From IMG/VR virus record IMGVR_UViG_3300020175_000009, positions 1 to 57,315 of that record: a stretch of 57,315 nucleotides of DNA. The stretch is one strand, 5' to 3'. Shown piece by piece: positions 3,001-26,619 of the stretch. Source of the stretch: a virus (Duplodnaviria; Caudoviricetes). Under the pieces are notes generated by a model that saw nothing but the letters and a program-made list of their open reading frames with translations, did no database searches and was not told where the DNA came from. The position numbers and the translations under genes are program-made. The first letter of the stretch is position 1. Each line of letters begins with the position of its first letter.

Positions 3001-6000
3001 TTTGTAACCTGTGCTAAATTAATAGCATTCACGATATAATCAGCATCCATAAGTACGTGCTGTGTTTCAAAAGTAGTCACCGCATTATATTGCATTGCTA
3101 CAAATCCAAGTTCGGCATTGGCAATAGATGCACCAATAGTAAAGCTAGCATTAATATCACCATTAGCTGATTTAACAATTGCAATTGCTGTGTCAGACAG
3201 TGCTAATGATGCTGTAATATCTGCAACGCCTACATCGTTTATAATACCCACGATGTCGTTACCCGTAAGTGCTGAGCCCGCTAGGTGCGTGGGTGTTTCT
3301 AGAGAAATAGTTACCCCGTCGATCACTAACTCTAGTCCAGTGTTATCTGCTATAGTGGTGCCAGTGGAGTGCGCATAAGGATCTCCACCATAAGGTGCGC
3401 TTGGATCCAATACTTCTACTTGTTGTGTTTTTGTTAGCTCTATAAGACTGTTATTAATTACAATATTACTTGAACTAAGAATACTTGGATCAATAGTAGT
3501 GCCGGTTGCCACAGCAGTGTTATATGAGATTGTAGTCTCATCGAACCACACACTCACGCCGTCAATTACGGCATTTGGATCATTGGGGTGAGTAGTAGTG
3601 TCTCTGTATTTAAATTCTGGATCAAATGCAGCGCCAGTAACTAATATCTCCTGATTAATTCGTGTATATCCAATAAAATCAACGTTACATTTCCACATAT
3701 GTCCATTATATCTAATATAATCTCCACGCTTGTAACTTGTTTGTCCGTTCCAAGTTGGAACAGTTGCATAGTCAGCATTGTTATCAAAAATTGTTTCTAA
3801 GTTATCAATTTCGGGAACAATATATGTTGTATCTCCGTGCAGTATTGGCCCAGCAGTTGGTAACTTTTGTTTTTCTAGGTTTTCTGCATATGTGTCTCTT
3901 GAAAACAGAACATCACTAGCATCACCATTTACATAGACTGTGTCTGTCGTTGCAAAATTAACAGTGTAAGGTTCACTTTGAATTTTTGCTTGTTTGAATT
4001 CAACTTCAACTGAATTTCTCTGTGTCATATCTCCAAGATATCCATTTTTGAACATCCATTCTTCATATGCATTAACAGTACTGGTGTATGTATTAACTAA
4101 GTTAACTCTGTTGAGTTTGTTTATGATTTGGTTAGTACCTTTTTCTCTAATAATTCCCTTGTAGAGTTTTGCCATAGTACTGTCTGATGGATTTAATGCG
4201 TTCACCCAATCTCTATCAAAATTACCATTCGTAATTTGCTGAGCTTTGGCCTGTCCACGATTGAATAATTCAATATCATCACGGTAAAAATAATCAATTT
4301 GATGTGCAGTTGTATCGAAGTTTGGTGTGATACTATCATCATGCACCAAATAACCAGGTGCGGTTCTTGAACCAACCCAGCCCTTTGTTCTTTCGCCACG
4401 TAGCCACATTTTATAGAATCTGGCATTAACAACATCGTCAAAGATTTTACGGTTAAACTGTGTTGTATTAGCTAGTAAAATTCCATGCTCGTAATCAACT
4501 TCAGCAAACCCAATGCTTCCTAAAATTTCGTTGTTCTTTAGGCTTATCTCTACTGAGTTATTTGATCTAGCTACGCTTAGTTGGCTAACATCAATCTTTT
4601 GTCCTTTGTTGTTTAGTACAGTATTAATATTTCCAATAACACTGTCAAACTCTGCAATGAACCCGTGCGTCACGTTATAAGTTACTGATGAGCCCAAGCC
4701 CACCGTGTATGTATCACCTTGCTGTGAACTAGCAGCCCATTGCGCAAACATAAGTGCCAGTGCGTCCTTGTCGTCTTGGAACACAATACCAGCCTGCTCA
4801 GCAAATTGCCTAACTCCACGGATAAAGTTATAAGTGTCTTGAATTTTGGCAAATACTGTACCAAATTCAGCAGTACTAGTTACAGTACTGAACTGTTTGT
4901 ATTTTCTAACCTGTATACCATTAACTACTTCTTGATTTACATATGGGTTTGCACCATTTACCACTGGTTCATTAAATTCAAATCTTTGCTTATTGCTGCT
5001 TACTGAGTTAACTTCAAAGCCGCCTGCTTTTCTTGTGATTTTAATAATGTTAGCAACATTAAGTTTAATTGGTGTTCCTTCAACCATAACAATTTCATAA
5101 TCACCATCATATAAGCGCACAGGACCATCAATACTACTGTCAGTTGACATCTCTATTAAGTTTTTAGAAGTAAATCCGCCTACTTTTTGCAATAGTTGTG
5201 TGTCTGTATTCTTATATTTTTGTTCCAAGTTTACAGTGTGTTGATTTCTTTGAATTGCATTGTACTGCGCTTGGTTAATACCCAGTGCATAATGTGGTAC
5301 TTCAGCTAATTCAATTTCCACTTCAGCAAAGCTGAAATTAGCTGGAACGTTACCTAAATTGACAAAATCAGATACTGCGGTTGTTGTGAATTTATTTCCT
5401 CGCTGAGTAACATTGACATGTGTAAGTTTGCCATTGCCATCTAAATTGATATCAGTTAATGCTGGCATTTCAGAATCACTACTCAATACCCTAAAGATAC
5501 TATCACTGCCGATTTCGTCAGTGGATGATTTAACTTTAGCCGCCACTAAACTTCTACCATATACTTCGCCGTGGTAATAAATGTCTTGGGCATTAAAGAG
5601 GTTTGATGTTGATTCCAGCACATCAGTATTAACATCTGGATCACTGGTACGGCGCATAATTCCTGGCTGGAAGAATCTTGTGAATCCCTCAGTTACATTT
5701 AATTTTAATACTGCACTAACAGTCATTGCCTGTGCAACGGCTGTATTTCTCCAGATAACTTCTACTGGTCCCCAATCACCAAACACAAACGGTTTGGCAG
5801 CATTTATATCACTTGGGGTTCCCAATACCAGATTTGGTTCTCTAAACTCACCAACAGAATCGACTGGAGCATTATTATCCCAATCCCAATAGTACATTGC
5901 ATACACAGTGTCTTGGACAACTGGCTGTCCTGGCTCGCTTATGATACCCTTTTTAAATGCATTAATCATTTCAGCACGTTGTGCAACATTATCCCATGAA

Positions 6001-10081: not shown

Positions 10082-13000
10082 TTACTGACTTCTAATATTA
10101 TCTGCTGTGATATTATCAATAATATCAATATTGTCTATACTTACATCGGGAATTAATAGTTCATCTCCCAACGGCGTAATTTGGAATAAATCACCAAACG
10201 AACCTTCTATGCCATATGGCACAATTACAAAACTACTTAGTGATCCCGACAAGTCTTTATGTACTTGTGCCGCGAGCTCCGTAAAGTAAAACGTTTCGCC
10301 AAAGTCCCAGTTTTCAATACTAAAGAAGTTTTCTATACTCTTAACTATCAAACTCTTTAATTCGTTGTCTGTAATTCTAGCGTTTTGTACTTTAATCGCT
10401 CTAAACTTTGCTTGTAATTCACTTGGTGCTTTGTTTCCAAACAACACTTTGTATTTAACTGGACGATAAATTATAGTATCGCTCATTGCTTTTTTTGTAT
10501 TAACTTCTTTAAACTGTTGATTTAGATCAGTGACTGTTGGAGGCAATGGTTCTTGGTTGGTTGTTCTTTTGTCAGATAACCAACTACGATATAAACTGTC
10601 ATATGATTGTGTTAATACAAACACATCAATAATGTTACTAAAACTTGGATCAATAATTTCATTTGTATCTGGAACGTGTGTCCATTCTAATCTTAATTCA
10701 GACAGCGTATCTGCGCCATCTGTTACATCAAAGAAACTATCAGGATTATTTGGACGATCATCTTGGTTTTTATCTTTCATAACAAGTAATACTTTGTTGT
10801 TGTTAAACACACCAGTCTCTTGTCCATTTTCTGCAAATTCATAACCATACACAAAGAAGCTGCCTAATGGAGCGCCTTGTTGAGAATTTATATCAATTTG
10901 ATCTCTAAACTTTTTATTGCTTTCACTCTGTAGCTTGTATTGGTTTCCAATATTGCCAAACTCAATTTGTGAACTTTCAATTGAATATCTAATTACACGA
11001 TTTGTAATAATATATCTATTAATGTTTGTTGTTGTATCATAATCTACTTTTATCATCCAACTAAGATCTAATTCCGGATCTTCATTTAAACTCCACTCAG
11101 TGTTGATATAATCGTAATTAATTGCAAAGTCACGTTTACTTAATAGTGCATCAATAAACAATTGTCTTTCAGAAATAGTAAACTTTCTAGTAAACGGAGG
11201 ATAAATTATTTCAATCTCTGCGCCATCAGGTACACGTGTGTCAAATACAACTGCCCCCAGTCCTCGATTATCTAATCCAGTTGGATTACCATTATTATTT
11301 TCTACACCCAAACCATCATTGTAAATTCTTGAAATTTTAGTCCAATAATCAGTTACAACTATTTCACCATCTATTACTTGCGTGTGTTTTAATTTAACTA
11401 ATGATCCAACTTTGGCATGCCGCATATAATTGTTGGTTGCATTTCCCAATCTTTGAATAACGCCGCCGTCGTCGCCAGCGTCGCCAGCGTCATTAACAAT
11501 GTTACCAGTGCTTATATCTGAGTTTATTTTTAATCTACTATCCCAGATAAATCTCCTATCATTTTCGTCACTTGCGCCATCATATTCATCAGCTTTTAAA
11601 TCTAAAAACACCAGTCTATTAGCATCATAATAATAATTGATTACTTCATCATCGTATAACAGCGGAGCTATCTGATTATCAAAAATAACCGATGCAACTG
11701 TACTATTACTAAATTGTGTTTTTGTTACTTCTTCCTTGTTGATTATTCCATCTGTTGCATACAATCTCAAACTAGTGTACGCTCCTGTTGGATCTGTAAT
11801 GTCAACATATCTACTGTGCCCACTGTGTGTGCGATTAATGCTTTTAATCTTTTTAATTGCTTCACTTTGACTTACTAGATAATTGTTATAATCATCTGCT
11901 GTAATCATTCTGTCTTGTGCGCTGTATGCTCGTGGTGCATTAACACGGATACTATCCAATGTTTCGCTCTCACTTGCTGTTAGTACACTATTTTTAAGTT
12001 GCAATTCAATTGCAATTGTGTATGTATTTCCGTCAATACCCTTGTACTTGACTGCAATCTTTTTGTTTCCAATATCATCAGGACGAAGAACATATGTTTG
12101 GTTGGCGCTTGGGCGATACCAAACACGAACAATACCACTAGGTTGGTTACCAAATGCATTGTCAGCAAACTGTACTGAAATTTGATTATCTTTGCGTGTC
12201 TTTACACTAAAGATGTCACGCACACCAGCTTCAATAGTGTTAAATGCAGTACTGCTACCAAACACACTATCAACTTTGGTCCACTCTTTGAGAGGATTGC
12301 CATTAGCATCAATTGTTTGTACCCAGACATCGCTGTTGTTTACATTGTTGACATTTATATCTAAAGACTGTTCACCGATACTTGAGTCAATTTGAAAGTC
12401 CTGAAATTGCAATGATCCTTGTTTAAAACCAACAAAGAAACCAGTGTTGTTGCTACTAATTCCTTTGCCGTCATTTTTATAAATTACGCTAAAAGCGCCA
12501 TTTGGATTAGGAGAATTTTCTTCAATTGACTTTTGTGTGCTGTTGTATGTTAATCCAATTGCATCGAATGTTGAATTGCTGCCTTGTACTTTGCCGTTGA
12601 ACTGAAAGTTTATTTGATCAATAATACTATTAATATTATAAAATTGTACTAGTGTATTGCTTATAGTAGCTTGTTTTCTAGGACTACCTATTTGGTTACT
12701 TGGAGCAAACGCTGCATTTAGTACTGTAATAAAATCATCCAAGTTGTCAACATTTGTTGAACTTTCATAGCGTATTTCTTGACCACCAAGGCTGGTGCCT
12801 TTGCTGCCAACAACTGGCTCGTTTGTTTTTACACTTACTACCTTTAGTTGACCAAATGCAGGAAGAGGGCGTTTTGGTTGGTAACCTAAAAATTCTGCGA
12901 GTTTAAATACACTTTCTTGACGTTGAGCCGTACTCAGGAAGTTGTTGCGGCTGTTAATGTCGTTACGATATGCTAAACTATGACCAAAGCGAGCAATTAA

Positions 13001-21025: not shown

Positions 21026-22051
21026 TTGTTATTTGATGAAGCTGTTATCTTTACCGATATACATTTCGGTATGAAAAATAACTCACGAGTACACAATACT
21101 GATTGTGAAGAATTCATTATTTGGATGATTGAAGAAGCACACAAGAGAAACATTAAAAAATGTTTGTTTTTGGGTGACTGGCATCACAATCGAGCCAGCA
21201 TTAATGTCAGTACAATGAATTATACCACAAGTAACTTGCAACGCTTAAATGATGCGTTTGATGAAGTTATTATGATCACTGGCAACCACGACCTGTATTA
21301 TCGTGAAAAGCGTGAGATTCATAGTATTCCAATGGTTGACAAGTATCCCAATATTCATATGATTAATGACGGTACTGAAATTATTGATGACTGTGCTTTC
21401 GTTCCATGGCTAGTAGAGGACGAACACAAGAAACTAAAAGAACTAAACGTAAAGTATATCTTTGGTCACTTTGAGCTTCCGCACTTCTTTATGAATGCTA
21501 TGGTACAAATGCCTGATCACGGGCACGGCTTACGTCCAGATGATTTAAACAAAGCTGACAAGGTGTTCAGTGGACACTTTCACAAACGGCAAACACGTGG
21601 TAACATCATTTATCCTGGAAATTGCTTTCCACATAACTATGCTGATGCATGGGATGATGAACGTGGTATCACATTCCTCAAATGGGGCCATGAGCCAGAG
21701 TTTGTAAACTGGACAGATGCACCAAAATATCGTACAATTAACTTATCTAAATTGATTGACAATCCTGAAGAAATATTGTCTAATAAGACACACTGTCGTA
21801 TTACACTTGACGTTGGCATCACATATGAAGAAGCTAACTTTATCAAGGAGACTTTTGCAGAACAGTATAATCTCCGTGAGATTACATTGTTGCCCAGCAA
21901 AAAAGAAGAACACACACAAGACTGGAACACTGGTGCTGAAATTGAAATTGAAAACGTAGATCAAATTGTTCTCAATCAATTGAATGCTATCGACAGTAAT
22001 ACAATTAGAAACGATTTGCTTATTAGCATTTATAATGGATTACATAATTAA
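21026..22051 (+). CDS. gp47: Recombination endonuclease subunit (Mre11/SbcD-like)
   Basis: DIHFG, GDWHH, GNHD, GHFE and SGHFH metallophosphoesterase motifs. Confidence 0.95.
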   Translation: MLFDEAVIFTDIHFGMKNNSRVHNTDCEEFIIWMIEEAHKRNIKKCLFLGDWHHNRASINVSTMNYTTSNLQRLNDAFDEVIMITGNHDLYYREKREIHSIPMVDKYPNIHMINDGTEIIDDCAFVPWLVEDEHKKLKELNVKYIFGHFELPHFFMNAMVQMPDHGHGLRPDDLNKADKVFSGHFHKRQTRGNIIYPGNCFPHNYADAWDDERGITFLKWGHEPEFVNWTDAPKYRTINLSKLIDNPEEILSNKTHCRITLDVGITYEEANFIKETFAEQYNLREITLLPSKKEEHTQDWNTGAEIEIENVDQIVLNQLNAIDSNTIRNDLLISIYNGLHN

Positions 22052-23829
22052 TGTCATTGAATATCAAAAATATCACTGTTAAAAACTTTATGAGTGTAGG
22101 TAATGTTACTCAAGCTGTACAGTTTGACACTGCCGGACTAACACTTGTACTGGGCAATAATATTGACTTGGGTGGCGATGGTTCACGTAATGGAACTGGT
22201 AAAACAACAATTGTCAATGCACTTAGCTTTGCCCTTTTTGGTAATGCACTATATAATATTAAAAAAGATAACCTAGTCAATAAGACAAACAACAAGCAAA
22301 TGGTTGTTACTGTTGACTTTGAAAAAGATGGCACAAACTATCGTATTGAACGTGGACGCAAGCCTAACTTATTTAAGTTTCTAGTTAACGATATTAACAA
22401 TATGGAAGGTGCAACTGACGAAATGCAAGGCGAAGGTAAACTGAGCCAAGTTGCTATTGAAAAAGTTTTGGGCATGAGTCACACAATGTTCAAACACATT
22501 GTTGCACTTAATACATATACTGAACCGTTTCTCAGTATGCGAGCAAATGATCAACGTGAGTTGATTGAACAACTTTTGGGTATTACTCAATTGTCTGAAA
22601 AAGCTGATATTCTGAAAGATCTTGTCAAACAAAGCAAAGACAGAATACAAGAAGAAACATATCGTATTCGTGCTACTGAAGAAGCTAACGAAAGAATTGG
22701 CAAGAGTATTACTGATTTAGAACGTCGCCAACGTGTCTGGCAGCAGAAGAAACAATCAAATATCGATGAATATAAGAAAGACTTACTTGCACTAGAACAT
22801 ATCGACATTGAAGAAGAACTACAAGCACATGTTGCGTTTGCTGAATTTAATGAAAATAAGTCTAAAATTGAAACAGCGCAGAGATGGATTAATAGTCTCA
22901 ATTCTGACGATAAGAAACAAGAAAAAGTTATCGCCAAACTTAATGATGAAATCAAGTTACTTAAAGAACACACTTGCTATGCTTGCGGTCAAGAAATGCA
23001 CGATGATAAACAAGAAAGTATCCTCTCTGCAAAAGAAGAACAAAAGCAAGAAGCTACCATGCAATTGCTTGCTAATAATACACAACTACAAGAACATGAA
23101 GCTGTTGTTGCAGAGATTGGTGAACTTGGTTCTGCACCTCACATTGAGTACAACACAGTACAAGAAGCATTTGAGCATCAGAATAAAATCCAACAAACTA
23201 ACAATAACTTAGAAAACGCCCAAAGCGAAACTGATCCGTATGCTGATCAGATTGATGCTCTAAAGAACACCGGGTTACAAGAACTTGATTGGACTGAAGT
23301 AAATAGACTAACTGAGCTCAAGGAGCACCAAGACTTTCTTCTTAAATTGCTAACTAATAAGGATAGCTTTATTCGTAAAAAGATTATTGAACAAAACTTA
23401 CAATTCATGAACAACCGTTTGGAATACTATATTACTAAACTTGGATTACCGCACGAAGTGCAATTCCAAAGCGATCTAAATGTAAGCATTGTTCAACTTG
23501 GTCAAGACTTAGATTTTGATAACCTGTCACGTGGAGAACGTAACAGACTTATCCTAGGACTTAGTTGGGCATTCCGTGATGTGTTTGAAAGTATGAACCA
23601 TCCTATTAACTTAGTTTGTATTGACGAGCTAGTTGACAGTGGTATGGATACAATTGGCGTTGAGAGCGCACTGGGCGTTCTCAAGAAAATGGAACGAGAA
23701 AGATATAAAAATATTTTGCTGATCTCACACCGAGATGAGCTTGTAGGAAGGGTAAATAACGTATTGCAAGTTACTAAAGAAAACGGCTTTACTACTTTCA
23801 ATACTGAAGTAGAAATCGTTGATGCCTAA
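22051..23829 (+). CDS. gp46: Recombination ATPase subunit (Rad50/SbcC-like)
   Basis: Walker A NGTGKTT, CYAC zinc hook in coiled coil, LSRGE signature, IDELVD Walker B, ISH. Confidence 0.95.
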   Translation: MSLNIKNITVKNFMSVGNVTQAVQFDTAGLTLVLGNNIDLGGDGSRNGTGKTTIVNALSFALFGNALYNIKKDNLVNKTNNKQMVVTVDFEKDGTNYRIERGRKPNLFKFLVNDINNMEGATDEMQGEGKLSQVAIEKVLGMSHTMFKHIVALNTYTEPFLSMRANDQRELIEQLLGITQLSEKADILKDLVKQSKDRIQEETYRIRATEEANERIGKSITDLERRQRVWQQKKQSNIDEYKKDLLALEHIDIEEELQAHVAFAEFNENKSKIETAQRWINSLNSDDKKQEKVIAKLNDEIKLLKEHTCYACGQEMHDDKQESILSAKEEQKQEATMQLLANNTQLQEHEAVVAEIGELGSAPHIEYNTVQEAFEHQNKIQQTNNNLENAQSETDPYADQIDALKNTGLQELDWTEVNRLTELKEHQDFLLKLLTNKDSFIRKKIIEQNLQFMNNRLEYYITKLGLPHEVQFQSDLNVSIVQLGQDLDFDNLSRGERNRLILGLSWAFRDVFESMNHPINLVCIDELVDSGMDTIGVESALGVLKKMERERYKNILLISHRDELVGRVNNVLQVTKENGFTTFNTEVEIVDA

Positions 23830-23986
23830 CTCAAAATGGATATATGAGCGGGATAATGAAAAAGTTTATCGCCGCAAATATGGACAACGTGACCGACACC
23901 TTATGTTGGGAGAATCTCACGAAGACGTGGGGATAGATATATGGCAATTACTCAAAAGAGTTATTGACGATAATGAAGAAGTGTAG
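23822..23986 (+). CDS. Small hypothetical protein (54 aa), below the ORF-track cutoff
   Basis: MPNSKWIYERDNEKVYRRKYGQRDRHLMLG...NEEV*. The start overlaps the gp46 3' end and the ORF fills the gap to the next gene. Confidence 0.65.
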   Translation: MPNSKWIYERDNEKVYRRKYGQRDRHLMLGESHEDVGIDIWQLLKRVIDDNEEV

Positions 23987-24012
23987 TATCGTAAGATATT
24001 ATAGGAAACAAT

Positions 24013-24465
24013 TTGTTACCTTGGACGTATAGCGGAGAGACAGTTACTGAGTTGCCGGAAGATTGCGCTGGCTTTGTATACTTAATCACGAATACACAAT
24101 CAGGCAGAATGTATATTGGGAAGAAACTAGCTAAGTTTTCCAAAACAAAATACAAGATGCACACACAAAAAAATGGCAAAAAAGTTAGAAAAAAAATTAA
24201 ATCAAAAATAGACTCAGACTGGAAAACATATTATGGCTCATCAAACGCACTAACAACAGATATTGAAACTTTAGGCACCGAAAACTTCACAAGAGAAATA
24301 TTATTTTATTGTAACAGCAAAGCAGAATGCAGTTACATTGAGGCACGAGAACAATTTACCAGAAAAGTACTAGAATCAGACGATTATTATAACGGACACA
24401 TACAGGTCCGTGTACATGGCTCACATATACTAACAGAACAGCTACAAAAAAACAAAAACTGCTAG
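24013..24465 (+). CDS. GIY-YIG family nuclease-like protein (Seg-like catalytic domain only)
   Basis: GFVYLITN...GRMYIGKK, YYGSS, conserved E (YIEAREQ) and YYN; TTG start after AGGA. Confidence 0.8.
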   Translation: MLPWTYSGETVTELPEDCAGFVYLITNTQSGRMYIGKKLAKFSKTKYKMHTQKNGKKVRKKIKSKIDSDWKTYYGSSNALTTDIETLGTENFTREILFYCNSKAECSYIEAREQFTRKVLESDDYYNGHIQVRVHGSHILTEQLQKNKNC

Positions 24466-24499
24466 AGACCATCTCAAAACTCCCTTAAAAACTGATCAT

Positions 24500-24910
24500 A
24501 AGGTTGGCACGCCAGATATTATCGTGCTGCGAATCCGTTCCTGATAGAGACGGTAAGCAATGGGCTATTCAGTTGTCCGATTCAATACACTACCCGGTTT
24601 AATCGCCGGATGCCTAAAAGACCTTGCCTATGCGAGAGTGCTTTTGTATTGTCTAAAAGGTTGTAACACAGAGATGTGTGAATAAAAGATCAAGCTCTCC
24701 TGACACTTGGAACTTGATGGACTGTTTTTAGCTGTCATATTGGCAAAAAACACTATAGTCTGTGCTACCAAGGCAGCATGTAATAGAGGTACAGCGTAAC
24801 CGCCTCCCCAATAATTGGTTTGTTAATATGATGTGTGTAATAATGACGGGAAATAACCAATCATTGTTTATTCATTACTAGGCCAAAACCAGGCTTAGTG
24901 TGAATAAACT
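24500..24910 (+). ncRNA. Candidate large structured non-coding RNA
   Basis: No ORF >=60 aa; about ten consecutive stems visible, including a GAGA (GNRA) tetraloop hairpin at 24666-24679 and several G-U pairs that work on the + strand. Family not recognised. Confidence 0.55.
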
Positions 24911-24918
24911 TCAAGGAA

Positions 24919-25094
24919 ATGATATAATAAATGAACGATTATATAATATGTTCATTATTTTTATATCATAATAATTTTTTCGAACTTTAATAATAAAGTA
25001 ATATATCGATTAAAGCGATAGCTTTAAGAAGATATAATGCTCGTAGAGCATTTGATAAGATTCATAAATATTGACAGTACAATTTACATTGTCA
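24919..25094. repeat. AT-rich cluster of inverted repeats (possible origin / unwinding element)
   Basis: ATGATATAA/TTATATCAT (24919-24969), ACTTTA/TAAAGT, TTAAAGC-GATA-GCTTTAA (25010-27), AATGCTC-GTA-GAGCATT (25036-52), TGACA/TGTCA (25072-94). Confidence 0.6.
25063..25070 (+). promoter_or_regulatory. Possible late promoter (CATAAATA)
   Basis: Motif match 43 nt upstream of 25114; a TTGACA follows immediately. Confidence 0.45.
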
Positions 25095-25113
25095 CAATTC
25101 TGAGTAGAAATAT

Positions 25114-25554
25114 ATGAACTTCAAAATATTCCAAGATAAATTTGTCGAGTGGATTATTCAAGACGTCGAAGCAAAAAAGATCGATGGTTTTCCTGTTTGT
25201 CCATTTGCACGTAAGGCAAGACTAACCAACAAGATACAATTTTTAGATTGTAGAGATAACTTAAAATCACAATATGAGTTGTTTGATAAGGAAACTTATG
25301 AGATCGCCATTGCTTGGGTTGATGGTCAAGACATAACTGATGTACAGGTTGTTCTTGACGAGTTATCAAAAGAAAATCCGGATCTATTGTACTTTACTAG
25401 TACTCCAGAGTCCGGACATTTTGTACAGAACTTTACTAATTGTGTTTTTATTCAGTTAAGAGCTGATATTATACAGAAGCGTGGTTTCTTGCACACTACA
25501 ACTTACTATGACAGTTGGCCAAAAGATTATTATGAGAATATTACAAAACTATAG
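25114..25554 (+). CDS. Hypothetical protein with PxCPFA motif (DUF1415-like)
   Basis: FPVCPFARKARL near the N-terminus; 146 aa. Confidence 0.65.
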   Translation: MNFKIFQDKFVEWIIQDVEAKKIDGFPVCPFARKARLTNKIQFLDCRDNLKSQYELFDKETYEIAIAWVDGQDITDVQVVLDELSKENPDLLYFTSTPESGHFVQNFTNCVFIQLRADIIQKRGFLHTTTYYDSWPKDYYENITKL

Positions 25555-25767
25555 GAATTGCTTTCCTGATTTTGAGTTTTCGTAATGATTTATTTTTTCC
25601 ACAAGCATTCGCAAGCTATCAACAGGCATAGACATTATGTCCTGATAGTTTAAGTTTAATCCACTATACATCAATAGATCCATATAATTGCTTTCAGTTT
25701 CTTCAAGCTGTTTATTATATCTATTGACGATTTTTTCTATCTCTTTCGGTTGACTAGTGGCGATCAA
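25549..25767 (-). CDS. gp51-like / tail chaperone 'T' segment, probably expressed as a -1 frameshift extension of the upstream gene
   Basis: LLMYSGLNLNYQDIMSMPVD resembles gp51/gpT-type segments. Only a TTG start with no clear SD, overlapping the upstream stop in the -1 frame. Confidence 0.65.
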   Translation of the reverse strand: MIATSQPKEIEKIVNRYNKQLEETESNYMDLLMYSGLNLNYQDIMSMPVDSLRMLVEKINHYENSKSGKQFL

Positions 25768-25782
25768 CCTACGAAAAAATTT
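25748..25782 (-). promoter_or_regulatory. Programmed -1 ribosomal frameshift signal (slippery heptamer plus 3' hairpin)
   Basis: mRNA A AAU UUU (overlapping U UUU UUC), 6-nt spacer, then hairpin GGUUGAU-CGCCACUA-GUCAACC. Confidence 0.7.
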
Positions 25783-26600
25783 GAGATGTCCAAATCAACA
25801 TCAGCTTCCCAAGTGTGTTGGCAACTTTGGCATGTTGTTTTAAATGTAGTATCAATACCACTGTCGCTCAAACCTTCAATTACTTTTTTGATTGATTCAT
25901 AATCATCTTTTGTAATAGACTTTAACCACTCGCGGATCATGTCTTTGTCGTCAATAACTTCGTCATCCGGCATCCTAACTGACATAACACAGTTAGTAAT
26001 TAAGTTGACCGTCAAATCAGCTAGTTCAACAAATGTTTGACCAAATATTTTTGCTTGCTGTTCTTCACTGTTGTCTTTTGATTGAAGAACGCCCTGTATC
26101 ATTTTTTGTTGCTTAACTTGTTGAATTTGCATAAGTGTTCTTTCACTTAATGTGTAAGGCTTTAATCTTACAACAAAGTCATTTTGCAATTTCAATTTAT
26201 TTGATACTTCAGTTGGGGTATGCCTCGCCATCAGTCTGTTTGCATCAACACTCATTGCGTTCATCTCACTGCATTTTTCACATGCGATATCAATATCAAT
26301 CTCTTTGCCATAACTTGCTTGTCTAATTCCAATCATTATCATTAATAGATCGTTAACTGGAATTTGGTTAGGGTCAGCAATATCAGGACAGCAACTTTTA
26401 ATCAAACTCACAGTCGCCTCTCCATTAAACAGTGCATCTGGAGATTTAGTAATAATTTCATCTCTAGCAGTCATACTATAAATTGCTAGCTCTCCGTCTA
26501 CACTAAGCTTCGGCTTTGGATCATAATATTCTCCACCACTGGGCAATGTGATGTACATTGCTGGTTTTCTGTAGGCCTTTATTAAAGGGTTGTCATTCAT
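25764..26600 (-). CDS. gp26: Baseplate hub assembly / tail assembly chaperone, gp26-like
   Basis: YITLPSGG...MTARDE...IRQASYG, CEKC and CQSC zinc pairs, C-terminal NFF. Start placed at ATG 26600 after the GGAGA SD. Confidence 0.75.
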   Translation of the reverse strand: MNDNPLIKAYRKPAMYITLPSGGEYYDPKPKLSVDGELAIYSMTARDEIITKSPDALFNGEATVSLIKSCCPDIADPNQIPVNDLLMIMIGIRQASYGKEIDIDIACEKCSEMNAMSVDANRLMARHTPTEVSNKLKLQNDFVVRLKPYTLSERTLMQIQQVKQQKMIQGVLQSKDNSEEQQAKIFGQTFVELADLTVNLITNCVMSVRMPDDEVIDDKDMIREWLKSITKDDYESIKKVIEGLSDSGIDTTFKTTCQSCQHTWEADVDLDISNFFVG

Positions 26601-26611
26601 GGTTTTCTCCA

Positions 26612-26619
26612 AATAAATA
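26612..26619 (+). promoter_or_regulatory. Late promoter (AATAAATA) for the tape-measure-like genes
   Basis: Motif match upstream of 26669. Confidence 0.55.

Follow-up and report, generated by a model that had tools for sequence, protein, structure and literature searches.

A structured RNA behind a GIY-YIG nuclease gene

This study concerns a stretch of viral DNA of 57,315 bases (the window; IMG/VR record IMGVR_UViG_3300020175_000009), in which a small gene for a GIY-YIG nuclease is followed on the same strand by a structured RNA. CheckV rates the record as 16% complete. The source of the window is a T4-superfamily phage, probably a jumbo phage, and genes of T4 type, recognised with Pfam, flank the nuclease/RNA locus on both sides. 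The features of the locus and its surroundings are these:

21026-22051, Mre11-like phosphoesterase (Pfam)
22051-23829, plus strand, gp46-like Rad50/SbcC recombination nuclease subunit (Pfam AAA_23), the left neighbour, kept across the locus
23819-23986, plus strand, open reading frame (ORF) of 55 amino acids with no assigned function, in the spacer of variable length that separates gp46 from the nuclease gene
24013-24465, plus strand, GIY-YIG nuclease of a single domain, 150 amino acids, TTG start (Pfam, PHROG, predicted structure)
24483-24685, plus strand, 5' domain of the RNA (RNAalifold on five sequences)
24677-24917, plus strand, conserved core of the RNA (covariance model R1)
24918-25113, AT-rich spacer (composition; GC 0.22-0.30) that contains promoter-like sites and small inverted repeats
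25114-25554, plus strand, ORF of 146 amino acids of no known family, with a weak phrog_28122 match only and a conserved DGFPVCPFARKARL-type motif
25764-26612, minus strand, gp26-like baseplate hub protein (Pfam T4_baseplate, 1.4e-22; synteny), the conserved right neighbour

Our results show that the plus strand from about 24483 to 24917 encodes a structured RNA of about 430 nucleotides (nt), which consists of a 5' domain of about 190 nt and a pseudoknotted core of 240 nt. An earlier note on this DNA had remarked that some 650 nt after the nuclease gene contain no ORF, and indeed 24466-25113 holds none longer than 47 amino acids. It had also proposed a structured non-coding RNA on the plus strand, co-oriented with the nuclease, and this proposal is supported both by folding and by covariation; the RNA begins about 20-30 nt behind the nuclease gene. 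Thus, the plus strand of 24466-24930 folds with -123.3 kcal/mol (z -2.93), a value equalled by 0 of 100 shuffles, while the minus strand reaches a z of only -1.63 and 4 of 100 shuffles are equally good. The GC content is 0.41-0.45 over 24400-24800, compared to about 0.35 around it, and then drops to 0.22.

The RNA is catalogued in part only. An Rfam scan of the window gave nothing at the gathering score, nor at E <=10 on 1.5 kilobases (kb) and on 231 nt, apart from noise of long non-coding RNA and small nucleolar RNA fragments; a scan of the window for transfer RNA (tRNA) and transfer-messenger RNA found none; and the 648-nt spacer had no blastn match in 50,697 phage records. Literature searches, with bioRxiv supplements outside the coverage, yielded the 2010 catalogue of the Polynucleobacter-1 motif, which is discussed below; neither the present RNA nor any other RNA associated with GIY-YIG turned up. 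The core is absent from Rfam 15 and is new as a conserved family of 240 nt.

Relatives were recovered in several ways. Blastn of the loci fetched by both neighbouring proteins recovered the spacer in L082 (a 99% relative), matched 438 nt at 75% immediately behind the GIY-YIG gene of L010 and L014, and returned only the 3' half of the spacer in L083 and L002. A 19-nt degenerate motif taken from the most conserved hairpin was then used to fetch viral loci, of which there were 104. The 3' part of the RNA was described by a covariance model (R1; 233 positions, 36 pairs). On the window, whose sequence is itself in the seed alignment of R1, the model gave a single hit at 24677-24917 (148 bits, E 1.1e-33, model positions 1-233), and divergent members independent of the seed scored 26-66 bits. 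The model matched at full length in 79 of the 88 motif loci given to it. Use of the GIY-YIG protein as bait gave 80 loci, and the core was present in 67 of them; eight of the 13 without a match have less than 350 nt downstream of the gene. The total comes to 118 distinct cores.

The earlier note had suggested comparing the regions downstream of homologous GIY-YIG genes, and this comparison revealed covariation, with double changes in 31 of the 36 pairs. In the alignment of 57 distinct rows from GIY-YIG loci (A3), 93.4% of the cells pair, compared to 39-48% in slid controls, and the pairing and covariation values were reached by 0 of 500 shuffles. Compensatory changes were also present in 17 of 24 pairs of an independent MAFFT/RNAalifold alignment. 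The claim that G-U pairs favour the plus strand held as well: one U-G is invariant (57/57 rows), and at a second position G-U or U-G is found in 25/57.

The RNA occurs widely among the T4-like and jumbo phages of uncultured aquatic samples, and DNA near-identical to the window is present in marine and estuary sequencing runs. Bacterial and archaeal genomes gave at least 120 hits to the 19-nt motif, which by estimate is about the chance expectation. Among the bacterial matches listed, one is full-length (L306; R1, 62.6 bits) and two are partial (L310, L250); all three are probably phage contigs binned with bacteria.

The core, 24677-24917, is built from the following elements:

Ha, 24689-94/24713-18, ATCAAG/CTTGAT, with inner TCC/GGA
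Hb, 24719-29/24746-61, GGACT and GTTTTT paired with AAAAAC and AGTCT
Pseudoknot X/X', in which the apical loop of Hb, TCATATT (24735-41), pairs with AATATGA (24825-31)
Hd, 24775-78/24821-24, AGCA/TGTT, which closes a three-way junction
He, 24786-89/24803-06, GAGG/CCTC, with a near-invariant 13-nt loop, TACAGCGTAACCG, inside the Hd junction
Hf, 24808-12/24814-18, CCAAT/ATTGG, inside the Hd junction
24845-52, conserved GACGGGAA
Hg, 24878-84/24892-98, a long 3' hairpin that extends to 24866-24909

The X/X' pseudoknot had been overlooked in the earlier note, and all of its pairs (8/8) covary. As for the stems that the note had drawn in this part, compensatory changes in relatives back ATCAAG/CTTGAT (24689-718), GAGG/CCTC (24786-806) and the 3' hairpin 24866-24909, which is Hg. 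The stem given there as GACTG..TAGTC (24720-60), here GGACT/AGTCT, is the closing helix of Hb; it forms in 29 of 36 relatives, with a different sequence in each. Two further stems are not kept in the family and had to be redrawn: instead of GTGCT/AGCAT (24762-79), AGCA at 24775-78 pairs with TGTT at 24821-24 (Hd), and instead of ATTGGTT/AACCAAT (24814-61), ATTGG closes the hairpin CCAAT/ATTGG at 24808-18 (Hf).

The 5' domain and the Polynucleobacter-1 motif

In the window, the 5' domain is composed of:

24506-28, 24535-53 and 24561-79, three hairpins
24583-89/24645-51, the closing helix of a three-way junction, with hairpins 24594-609 and 24617-44 inside
24661-85, a hairpin with a GAGA loop, at the 3' end of the domain

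RNAalifold on five sequences predicts 52 pairs in this domain, and compensatory double changes are seen at 8. Most of the stems proposed earlier could be followed into relatives: GCACG/CGTGC (24507-27) is backed by them, CAATACA/TGTATTG (24583-651) has three double changes (for example CAACAGT/ACTGTTG in a relative), the enclosed CCGG/CCGG has two (for example CCTC/GAGG) and CTTGC/GCGAG one, and the hairpin ACACA-GAGA-TGTGT also has one. CCGT/ACGG (24535-53) is kept and stands among the supported stems, but its sequence never varies among the five sequences compared. The domain as found in the window is common only to L082, L010, L014, L317 and L318. A search for it returned just three viral and four metagenome loci, two of them new, which are too few to judge how variable its loops are.

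Further relatives have other 5' domains in its place; Polynucleobacter-1 is the most frequent of these and is the one present in most freshwater relatives. While no Rfam family matched the window directly, the Rfam scan of the relatives, a check that had been proposed for the window, identified the Polynucleobacter-1 motif (RF01718) as the 5' domain in 28 of the 48 related loci scanned (8/18, 2/10 and 18/20). In these loci the motif begins 10-30 nt past the stop codon of the nuclease gene and ends about 10-15 nt before the core. Since it lies between the nuclease stop and the core, Polynucleobacter-1 is the front part of a larger RNA. In the 2010 catalogue it is a motif of 141 nt, known from 16 representatives that belong to Burkholderiales or come from freshwater and estuary samples, and the accompanying table lists it as a possible cis-regulator, with a query mark on the function (Weinberg et al. 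2010, PMC2864571). The genes downstream converge on the RNA, which argues against cis-regulation. A riboswitch or 5' untranslated region was also considered for the RNA of the window and rejected, because the downstream gene varies among loci or converges on the RNA. The Rfam seed of Polynucleobacter-1 lists one match in a Polynucleobacter chromosome.

The window belongs to a marine lineage. Its 5' domain occupies the same position as Polynucleobacter-1 in the relatives, between the upstream ORF and the core, but it scores below the gathering score of the RF01718 model (37 bits), with nothing even at E <=10 on 231 nt. By eye the layout resembles the Rfam consensus, with three hairpins, a three-way junction and a CACUAYCC...GGAYG-like signature, and no profile comparison links the two. 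We infer that the 5' domain of the window is a different or strongly diverged domain with the architecture of Polynucleobacter-1.

Two almost identical sequences differ in this domain. Between the window and its 99%-identical relative L082 there are 17 differences in 23900-26500, and 11 of them fall within 43 nt (24506-24548), all in loops or unpaired bases of two hairpins of the 5' domain. L318 has the loop of L082, and there are only two loop alleles among six sequences. A-rich direct repeats lie between the nuclease stop and the start of the RNA in some lineages (L131, L092, L084); those of L131 are CTAAAACTTAAAC-like units, and L084 has two copies each of two 12-nt words.

The nuclease slot and the exchange of modules

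The ORF at 24013-24465, which the earlier note had called GIY-YIG-like, matches Pfam SegE_GIY-YIG (PF19835) over the full profile (E 1.5e-33; 116 bits against a cut-off of 25; residues 4-130) and phrog_447 at 3e-38. Y23, Y34, G36, R94, E110 and N127 are invariant in 26 aligned homologues. An AlphaFold model (pLDDT, the predicted local distance difference test, 85.4) has the alpha/beta fold, so that the profile, the GIY, YIG, Arg, Glu and Asn motif residues and the modelled fold together place the protein in the superfamily. A Foldseek search of the model against the PDB gave nothing at E <=0.001, with the I-TevI domain only at rank 8; a wider structural aligner resolved this match, and the catalytic domain of I-TevI is the closest structure (Z 8.0, root mean square deviation 2.8, 82 residues aligned), followed by PD-T4-3 (Z 7.0), the N-terminal domain of UvrC (Z 5.6) and T4 EndoII (Z 4.9). 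The description of the protein as a bare catalytic domain was borne out by the model, which consists of the GIY-YIG domain alone, with neither a second domain nor a C-terminal DNA-binding domain; the K/R-rich insert seen previously is predicted to form a long beta-hairpin (residues 41-67).

Homologues of the nuclease in cultured phages (Melnitz, P-SSM2, phiM12; 36-51% identity) stand in other contexts. Beside those of Melnitz, the cyanophages and phiM12 the RNA was not found, and other genes follow at once; the cyanophage homologues form part of a conserved gene cluster annotated as 'T4-GC 213'. Note that the phrog_447 family is widely labelled 'NAD synthetase' in GenBank phages, as in P-SSM2 PSSM2_218 and phiM12 gp201 (L312, L313), which looks like a propagated mis-annotation.

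The order of genes at the locus is near-constant: gp46, a spacer of 0 to about 1.2 kb, a small nuclease gene, the RNA, in some cases the 146-amino-acid ORF, and then minus-strand genes that include gp26. The gp46 gene lies upstream of the nuclease and RNA in nearly all related loci. In the window, gp46 is 45-49% identical to its nearest proteins, which come from jumbo phages of Sinorhizobium, Pseudomonas and Agrobacterium and are annotated as exonuclease or recombination endonuclease subunit. The 55-amino-acid ORF at 23819-23986 had neither a Pfam nor a PHROG match. The 146-amino-acid ORF is restricted to a marine subgroup (for example L082-L086 and L110); loci of the Polynucleobacter-1 type lack it, and minus-strand genes come straight after their RNA. 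In L003 the arrangement is inverted: gp26 comes first, then the RNA core, which precedes the GIY-YIG gene but lies on the other strand, and further downstream a minus-strand gp46.

To count what stands in front of the RNA we used 61 distinct cores fetched by the motif, a sampling unbiased toward the nuclease, 46 of which have at least 900 nt upstream. Of these 46 loci, 33 carry a GIY-YIG gene, 10 carry PDDEXK_15, a nuclease of the PD-(D/E)xK type (Pfam 2.2e-25), and 3 carry neither. The PDDEXK_15 nuclease has 171-183 amino acids and the PHROG label 'RusA-like Holliday junction resolvase', and it replaces GIY-YIG between gp46 and the RNA in L110 (717-1259, plus strand), L112, L130, L136, L137, L139, L152 and others.

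The nuclease gene, the 5' domain and the core assort independently. The identity of gp46 correlates less with that of the nuclease (Spearman 0.52) than with that of the RNA core (0.71), and phage pairs whose gp46 C-termini are about 90% identical have GIY-YIG genes that are only 51-57% identical. One gp46 cluster of 12 loci contains four GIY-YIG lineages plus PDDEXK_15. Identity between the window and L010 is 80-88% from the nuclease gene through the 5' domain and about 51-60% in the core and downstream, and with L083 the pattern is reversed. L002 combines a nuclease of the window type with a 5' domain of the L083 type, and the latter domain also lies behind PDDEXK_15 in L110. These mosaic identity profiles place the breakpoints at the edges of the nuclease gene, the 5' domain and the core. 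Close relatives have thus exchanged their nucleases in a pattern that does not follow the flanking genes, as is typical of homing endonucleases.

The RNA is also found away from any nuclease. Of 15 large viral records searched with R1, 12 have a single copy, one has two copies, one has four and one has none; the record without a core has 164 kb, is rated 100% complete and carries a GIY-YIG gene. The copies of the four-copy genome, G002 (317,722 bases), lie at 12223-12460 (minus), 120348-120594 (plus), 251836-252115 (plus) and 314979-315216 (minus). They are mutually diverged, and those at 120348 and 314979 share about 100 nt of near-identical AT-rich flank downstream. The ORF in front of an extra copy is dCMP-deaminase-like, belongs to PNP_UDP_1 or has no known function, and none of the four extra genomic copies is preceded by a nuclease within 2 kb. 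The RNA also stands in an unrelated context in three other distinct loci (L097, L109, L155). In L321 a tRNA nucleotidyltransferase of the CCA-adding/poly(A) polymerase family is apparently split into two plus-strand ORFs (3804-4148 and 4191-5240), which lie 42 nt apart, about 500 nt downstream of an extra RNA copy.

These data bear on the idea, raised in the earlier note by analogy with IscB and its omegaRNA, that nuclease and RNA form a ribonucleoprotein in which the RNA gives specificity to the nuclease. In the form considered here the RNA might also regulate the nuclease, and the 5' domain or its variable loops would be the specificity element. Several observations point that way: a small single-domain nuclease lies upstream, on the same strand, in 43 of the 46 loci; the GIY-YIG protein, with no DNA-binding domain, has a basic beta-hairpin; the differences between the window and L082 concentrate in two hairpin loops; and the window and L010 share nuclease gene and 5' domain as one block. 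However, the unrelated GIY-YIG and PD-(D/E)xK folds occupy the same slot, RNA copies occur without a nuclease (3/46 loci and the four extra genomic copies), GIY-YIG homologues occur without the RNA, including that of the complete 164-kb record, and L002 pairs the window-type nuclease with another 5' domain. Each partner therefore occurs without the other, and the obligate co-occurrence that marks OMEGA- and CRISPR-type systems does not hold here. The variable guide-like end that had been suggested as a sign of a guide was looked for as well: neither end of the RNA is hypervariable, both are kept within lineages, and the variation lies in two internal hairpin loops, with two alleles in six sequences. 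We consider such a ribonucleoprotein very unlikely. Equally improbable in our view is its specific version, in which the core would be a constant RNA subunit for whichever nuclease shares its transcript and the 5' domain or the hairpin loops at 24506-24548 would set the target. If it were true, aquatic T4-like phages would possess an RNA-dependent weapon for homing or competition, and copies of the RNA without a nuclease would serve as decoys or as spare modules of specificity.

Expression, interpretation and comparison with known systems

Four RNA-library runs contain the stretch. In one of them, a contig spanning 23625-24946 joins the end of gp46, the nuclease gene and the RNA and ends 37 nt past the 3' hairpin; the next contig of that run begins at 25097. 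A run from another study covers 24594-24788 only. This fits co-transcription of nuclease and RNA and an end near 24946, and a 3' tail of the RNA up to about 24946 within the AT-rich spacer is possible. Moreover, the RNA starts 10-30 nt past the stop codon of the upstream ORF.

Such an arrangement might be that of a cis-acting element in the 3' untranslated region, which would end, stabilise or process the rightward gp47-gp46-nuclease transcript and insulate it from the converging late genes, with no function in trans. Accordingly, the RNA always lies close behind a co-oriented ORF, it is the last element before the converging minus-strand genes in the Polynucleobacter-1-type loci, and the contig mentioned above stops shortly after the 3' hairpin. 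Yet this hairpin is not followed by a U-tract, and the sole terminator-like site is unrelated and lies inside the RNA; marine loci have a co-oriented gene after the RNA; and about 430 nt with a pseudoknot and loops that are near-invariant across very distant phages exceed what a stabiliser or terminator needs. We regard a purely cis-acting role as unlikely.

The DNA that follows suggests another explanation. In each of 48 loci the next 75 nt are AT-rich (median GC 0.24, compared to 0.36 for the loci). The earlier note had named an initiator plus primer RNA for replication as its alternative. In such a reading the RNA could be an origin transcript that acts in cis, forms a persistent hybrid in this AT-rich DNA and primes leading-strand synthesis, in the manner of ColE1 RNA II or of the R-loops at T4 oriF and oriG, several copies then meaning several origins. 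The presence of one to four copies per genome would agree with this, and so would the position of the RNA next to recombination and replication genes and near gp26; in T4, oriF lies in uvsY, beside genes 25 and 26. Against it, AT-richness is the rule for the intergenic DNA of these phages, the cumulative GC skew changes direction together with the orientation of the genes, at about 19-20 kb, and does not do so at the RNA, and the 160 nt after the RNA share no motif across lineages, only lineage-specific words. The R-loop origins of T4 are not known to need an elaborate conserved fold, and the presence of invariant loops and of a pseudoknot points to a molecule being recognised more than to a hybrid being formed. 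We therefore think it quite unlikely that the RNA is an origin transcript.

The promoter-like sites of the spacer (24919-47 and 25071-98) are no commoner than in shuffles. In L132, L113, L126 and their relatives, a near-consensus sigma-70-like promoter (TTGACA, 16 nt, TACAAT) lies just after the RNA and points rightward into the converging minus-strand genes; the window site at 24919-24947 is weaker. The window also has an inverted repeat, AATGAAC...GTTCATT, around TATAAT at 24940-24965, which may be an operator or a phage-specific promoter, and similar ATGAAC/GTGAAT words follow some of the G002 copies. RTGAAH-like repeats beside the RNA copies of one genome do not generalise.

The locus could further be seen as a mobile ribozyme, a diverged self-splicing or self-cleaving RNA akin to a group I intron, with the nuclease as its mobility gene. 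Introns are served by both endonuclease families found at the locus, the pseudoknotted core is conserved while the peripheral domains vary, and some genomes have several copies. But there was no match to Intron_gpI or to a ribozyme, at E <=10 on the window and at E <=5 or 1 on 28 relatives, and on our reading of the structure the order of the helices does not fit the P3-P9 topology. Nor is a gene split: gp46 keeps its own conserved C-terminus, and the ORFs flanking the extra copies are complete and mutually unrelated. The canonical copy, moreover, is at one fixed site. A mobile ribozyme is in our opinion extremely unlikely. The group I intron proper was rejected for its missing Rfam signal, misfitting helix order and lack of an interrupted gene.

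The reading that we favour, to which we would give an even chance, is that of an autonomous structured RNA, co-transcribed with an adjoining homing-endonuclease-like cassette. The RNA would be made as a 3' extension of whichever small gene precedes it, as suggested by the gap of 10-30 nt to the stop codon and by the one metatranscriptome contig that spans both. Once folded it might act on its own, most probably as a scaffold or decoy bound via its invariant single-stranded loops, or else as a ribozyme, and it would not be a guide for the nuclease. The nuclease gene would be a replaceable cassette (several GIY-YIG lineages or PD-(D/E)xK), similar to a free-standing homing endonuclease; the 3' end of gp46 and the RNA core flank it and could serve as homology arms when it is copied or swapped.

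A number of points weigh against this autonomous RNA with its exchangeable cassette. As regards the RNA, the covariation in A3 was counted on an alignment fitted to R1, which favours the structure of the model, and scaffold, decoy and ribozyme are a class of mechanism, not a demonstrated one. As regards transcription, two of the RNA-library runs give 10-kb contigs over 22800-26400, which may be carried-over DNA, the contigs show neither strand, ends nor abundance, and the runs were chosen with this stretch, so that no conclusion rests on depth or on gaps in coverage. As regards the nuclease, it is directly upstream and nearly abutting in those same 43 of 46 loci. Because all these phages share their gene order, the fact that the two are neighbours does not in itself tell a functional link from synteny kept by descent, and a functional link between nuclease and RNA restricted to the canonical locus is compatible with the data. 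The main point that the favoured reading leaves unexplained is the cluster of loop changes between the window and L082, which could mark a specificity determinant. Homing, for its part, has to be reconciled with a nuclease that has no separate DNA-binding domain and with the failure to find a nuclease-free allele of the canonical locus among the 46 motif loci; both slot nucleases could instead be the phage's structure-specific or resolving nuclease and not selfish genes. The use of a guide RNA by a GIY-YIG enzyme is attractive and unsupported here, and the clustered loop changes are the one observation that still deserves a direct test.

The free-standing GIY-YIG homing endonucleases of T4 are SegA to SegG, and SegB lies within a tRNA gene cluster. 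As with these, a Seg-type gene is inserted here between conserved genes and beside a conserved RNA gene, its alleles are swapped among near-identical phages, and an unrelated endonuclease family takes the same site elsewhere. Unlike them, the nuclease of our locus is only 150 amino acids long and lacks a C-terminal DNA-binding domain, most relatives have it where one would expect few, an empty site was not found, and its homing is putative. With the ColE1 RNA II preprimer and the T4 R-loop origins oriF and oriG, the RNA has in common that a structured transcript runs into AT-rich DNA in the neighbourhood of genes for replication and recombination; priming does not account for the conserved loops or for the pseudoknot.

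IscB and TnpB resemble the present system in that a small nuclease gene is directly adjoined, on the same strand, by a long structured RNA, and PMC10690162 describes OMEGA nucleases as homing enzymes of their own elements. However, the nucleases here have a GIY-YIG or PD-(D/E)xK fold and not RuvC/HNH, neither a guide segment nor transposon ends were found at these loci, and RNA and nuclease each occur alone. GOLLD, ROOL and OLE (10.1101/2024.12.08.627333), which are large ornate RNAs of bacteria and phages, are likewise long and highly structured, with many conserved unpaired nucleotides; at about 430 nt our RNA is shorter, it does not match these families in Rfam, and it keeps a fixed place in T4-like genomes.

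Finally, the Rfam model of Polynucleobacter-1 leaves out the 240-nt core, the conserved part of the RNA described here. This motif, catalogued since 2010, is recast as the front third of a much larger RNA with a previously undescribed core, and the RNA is placed at a defined genomic site in uncultured aquatic T4-like and jumbo phages. The nuclease cassette, the 5' domain and the core constitute a clean natural case of modular exchange around a homing-type nuclease, and the strongly covarying set, which exceeds 100 distinct sequences, is large enough to determine the structure of the RNA and to find its partners.

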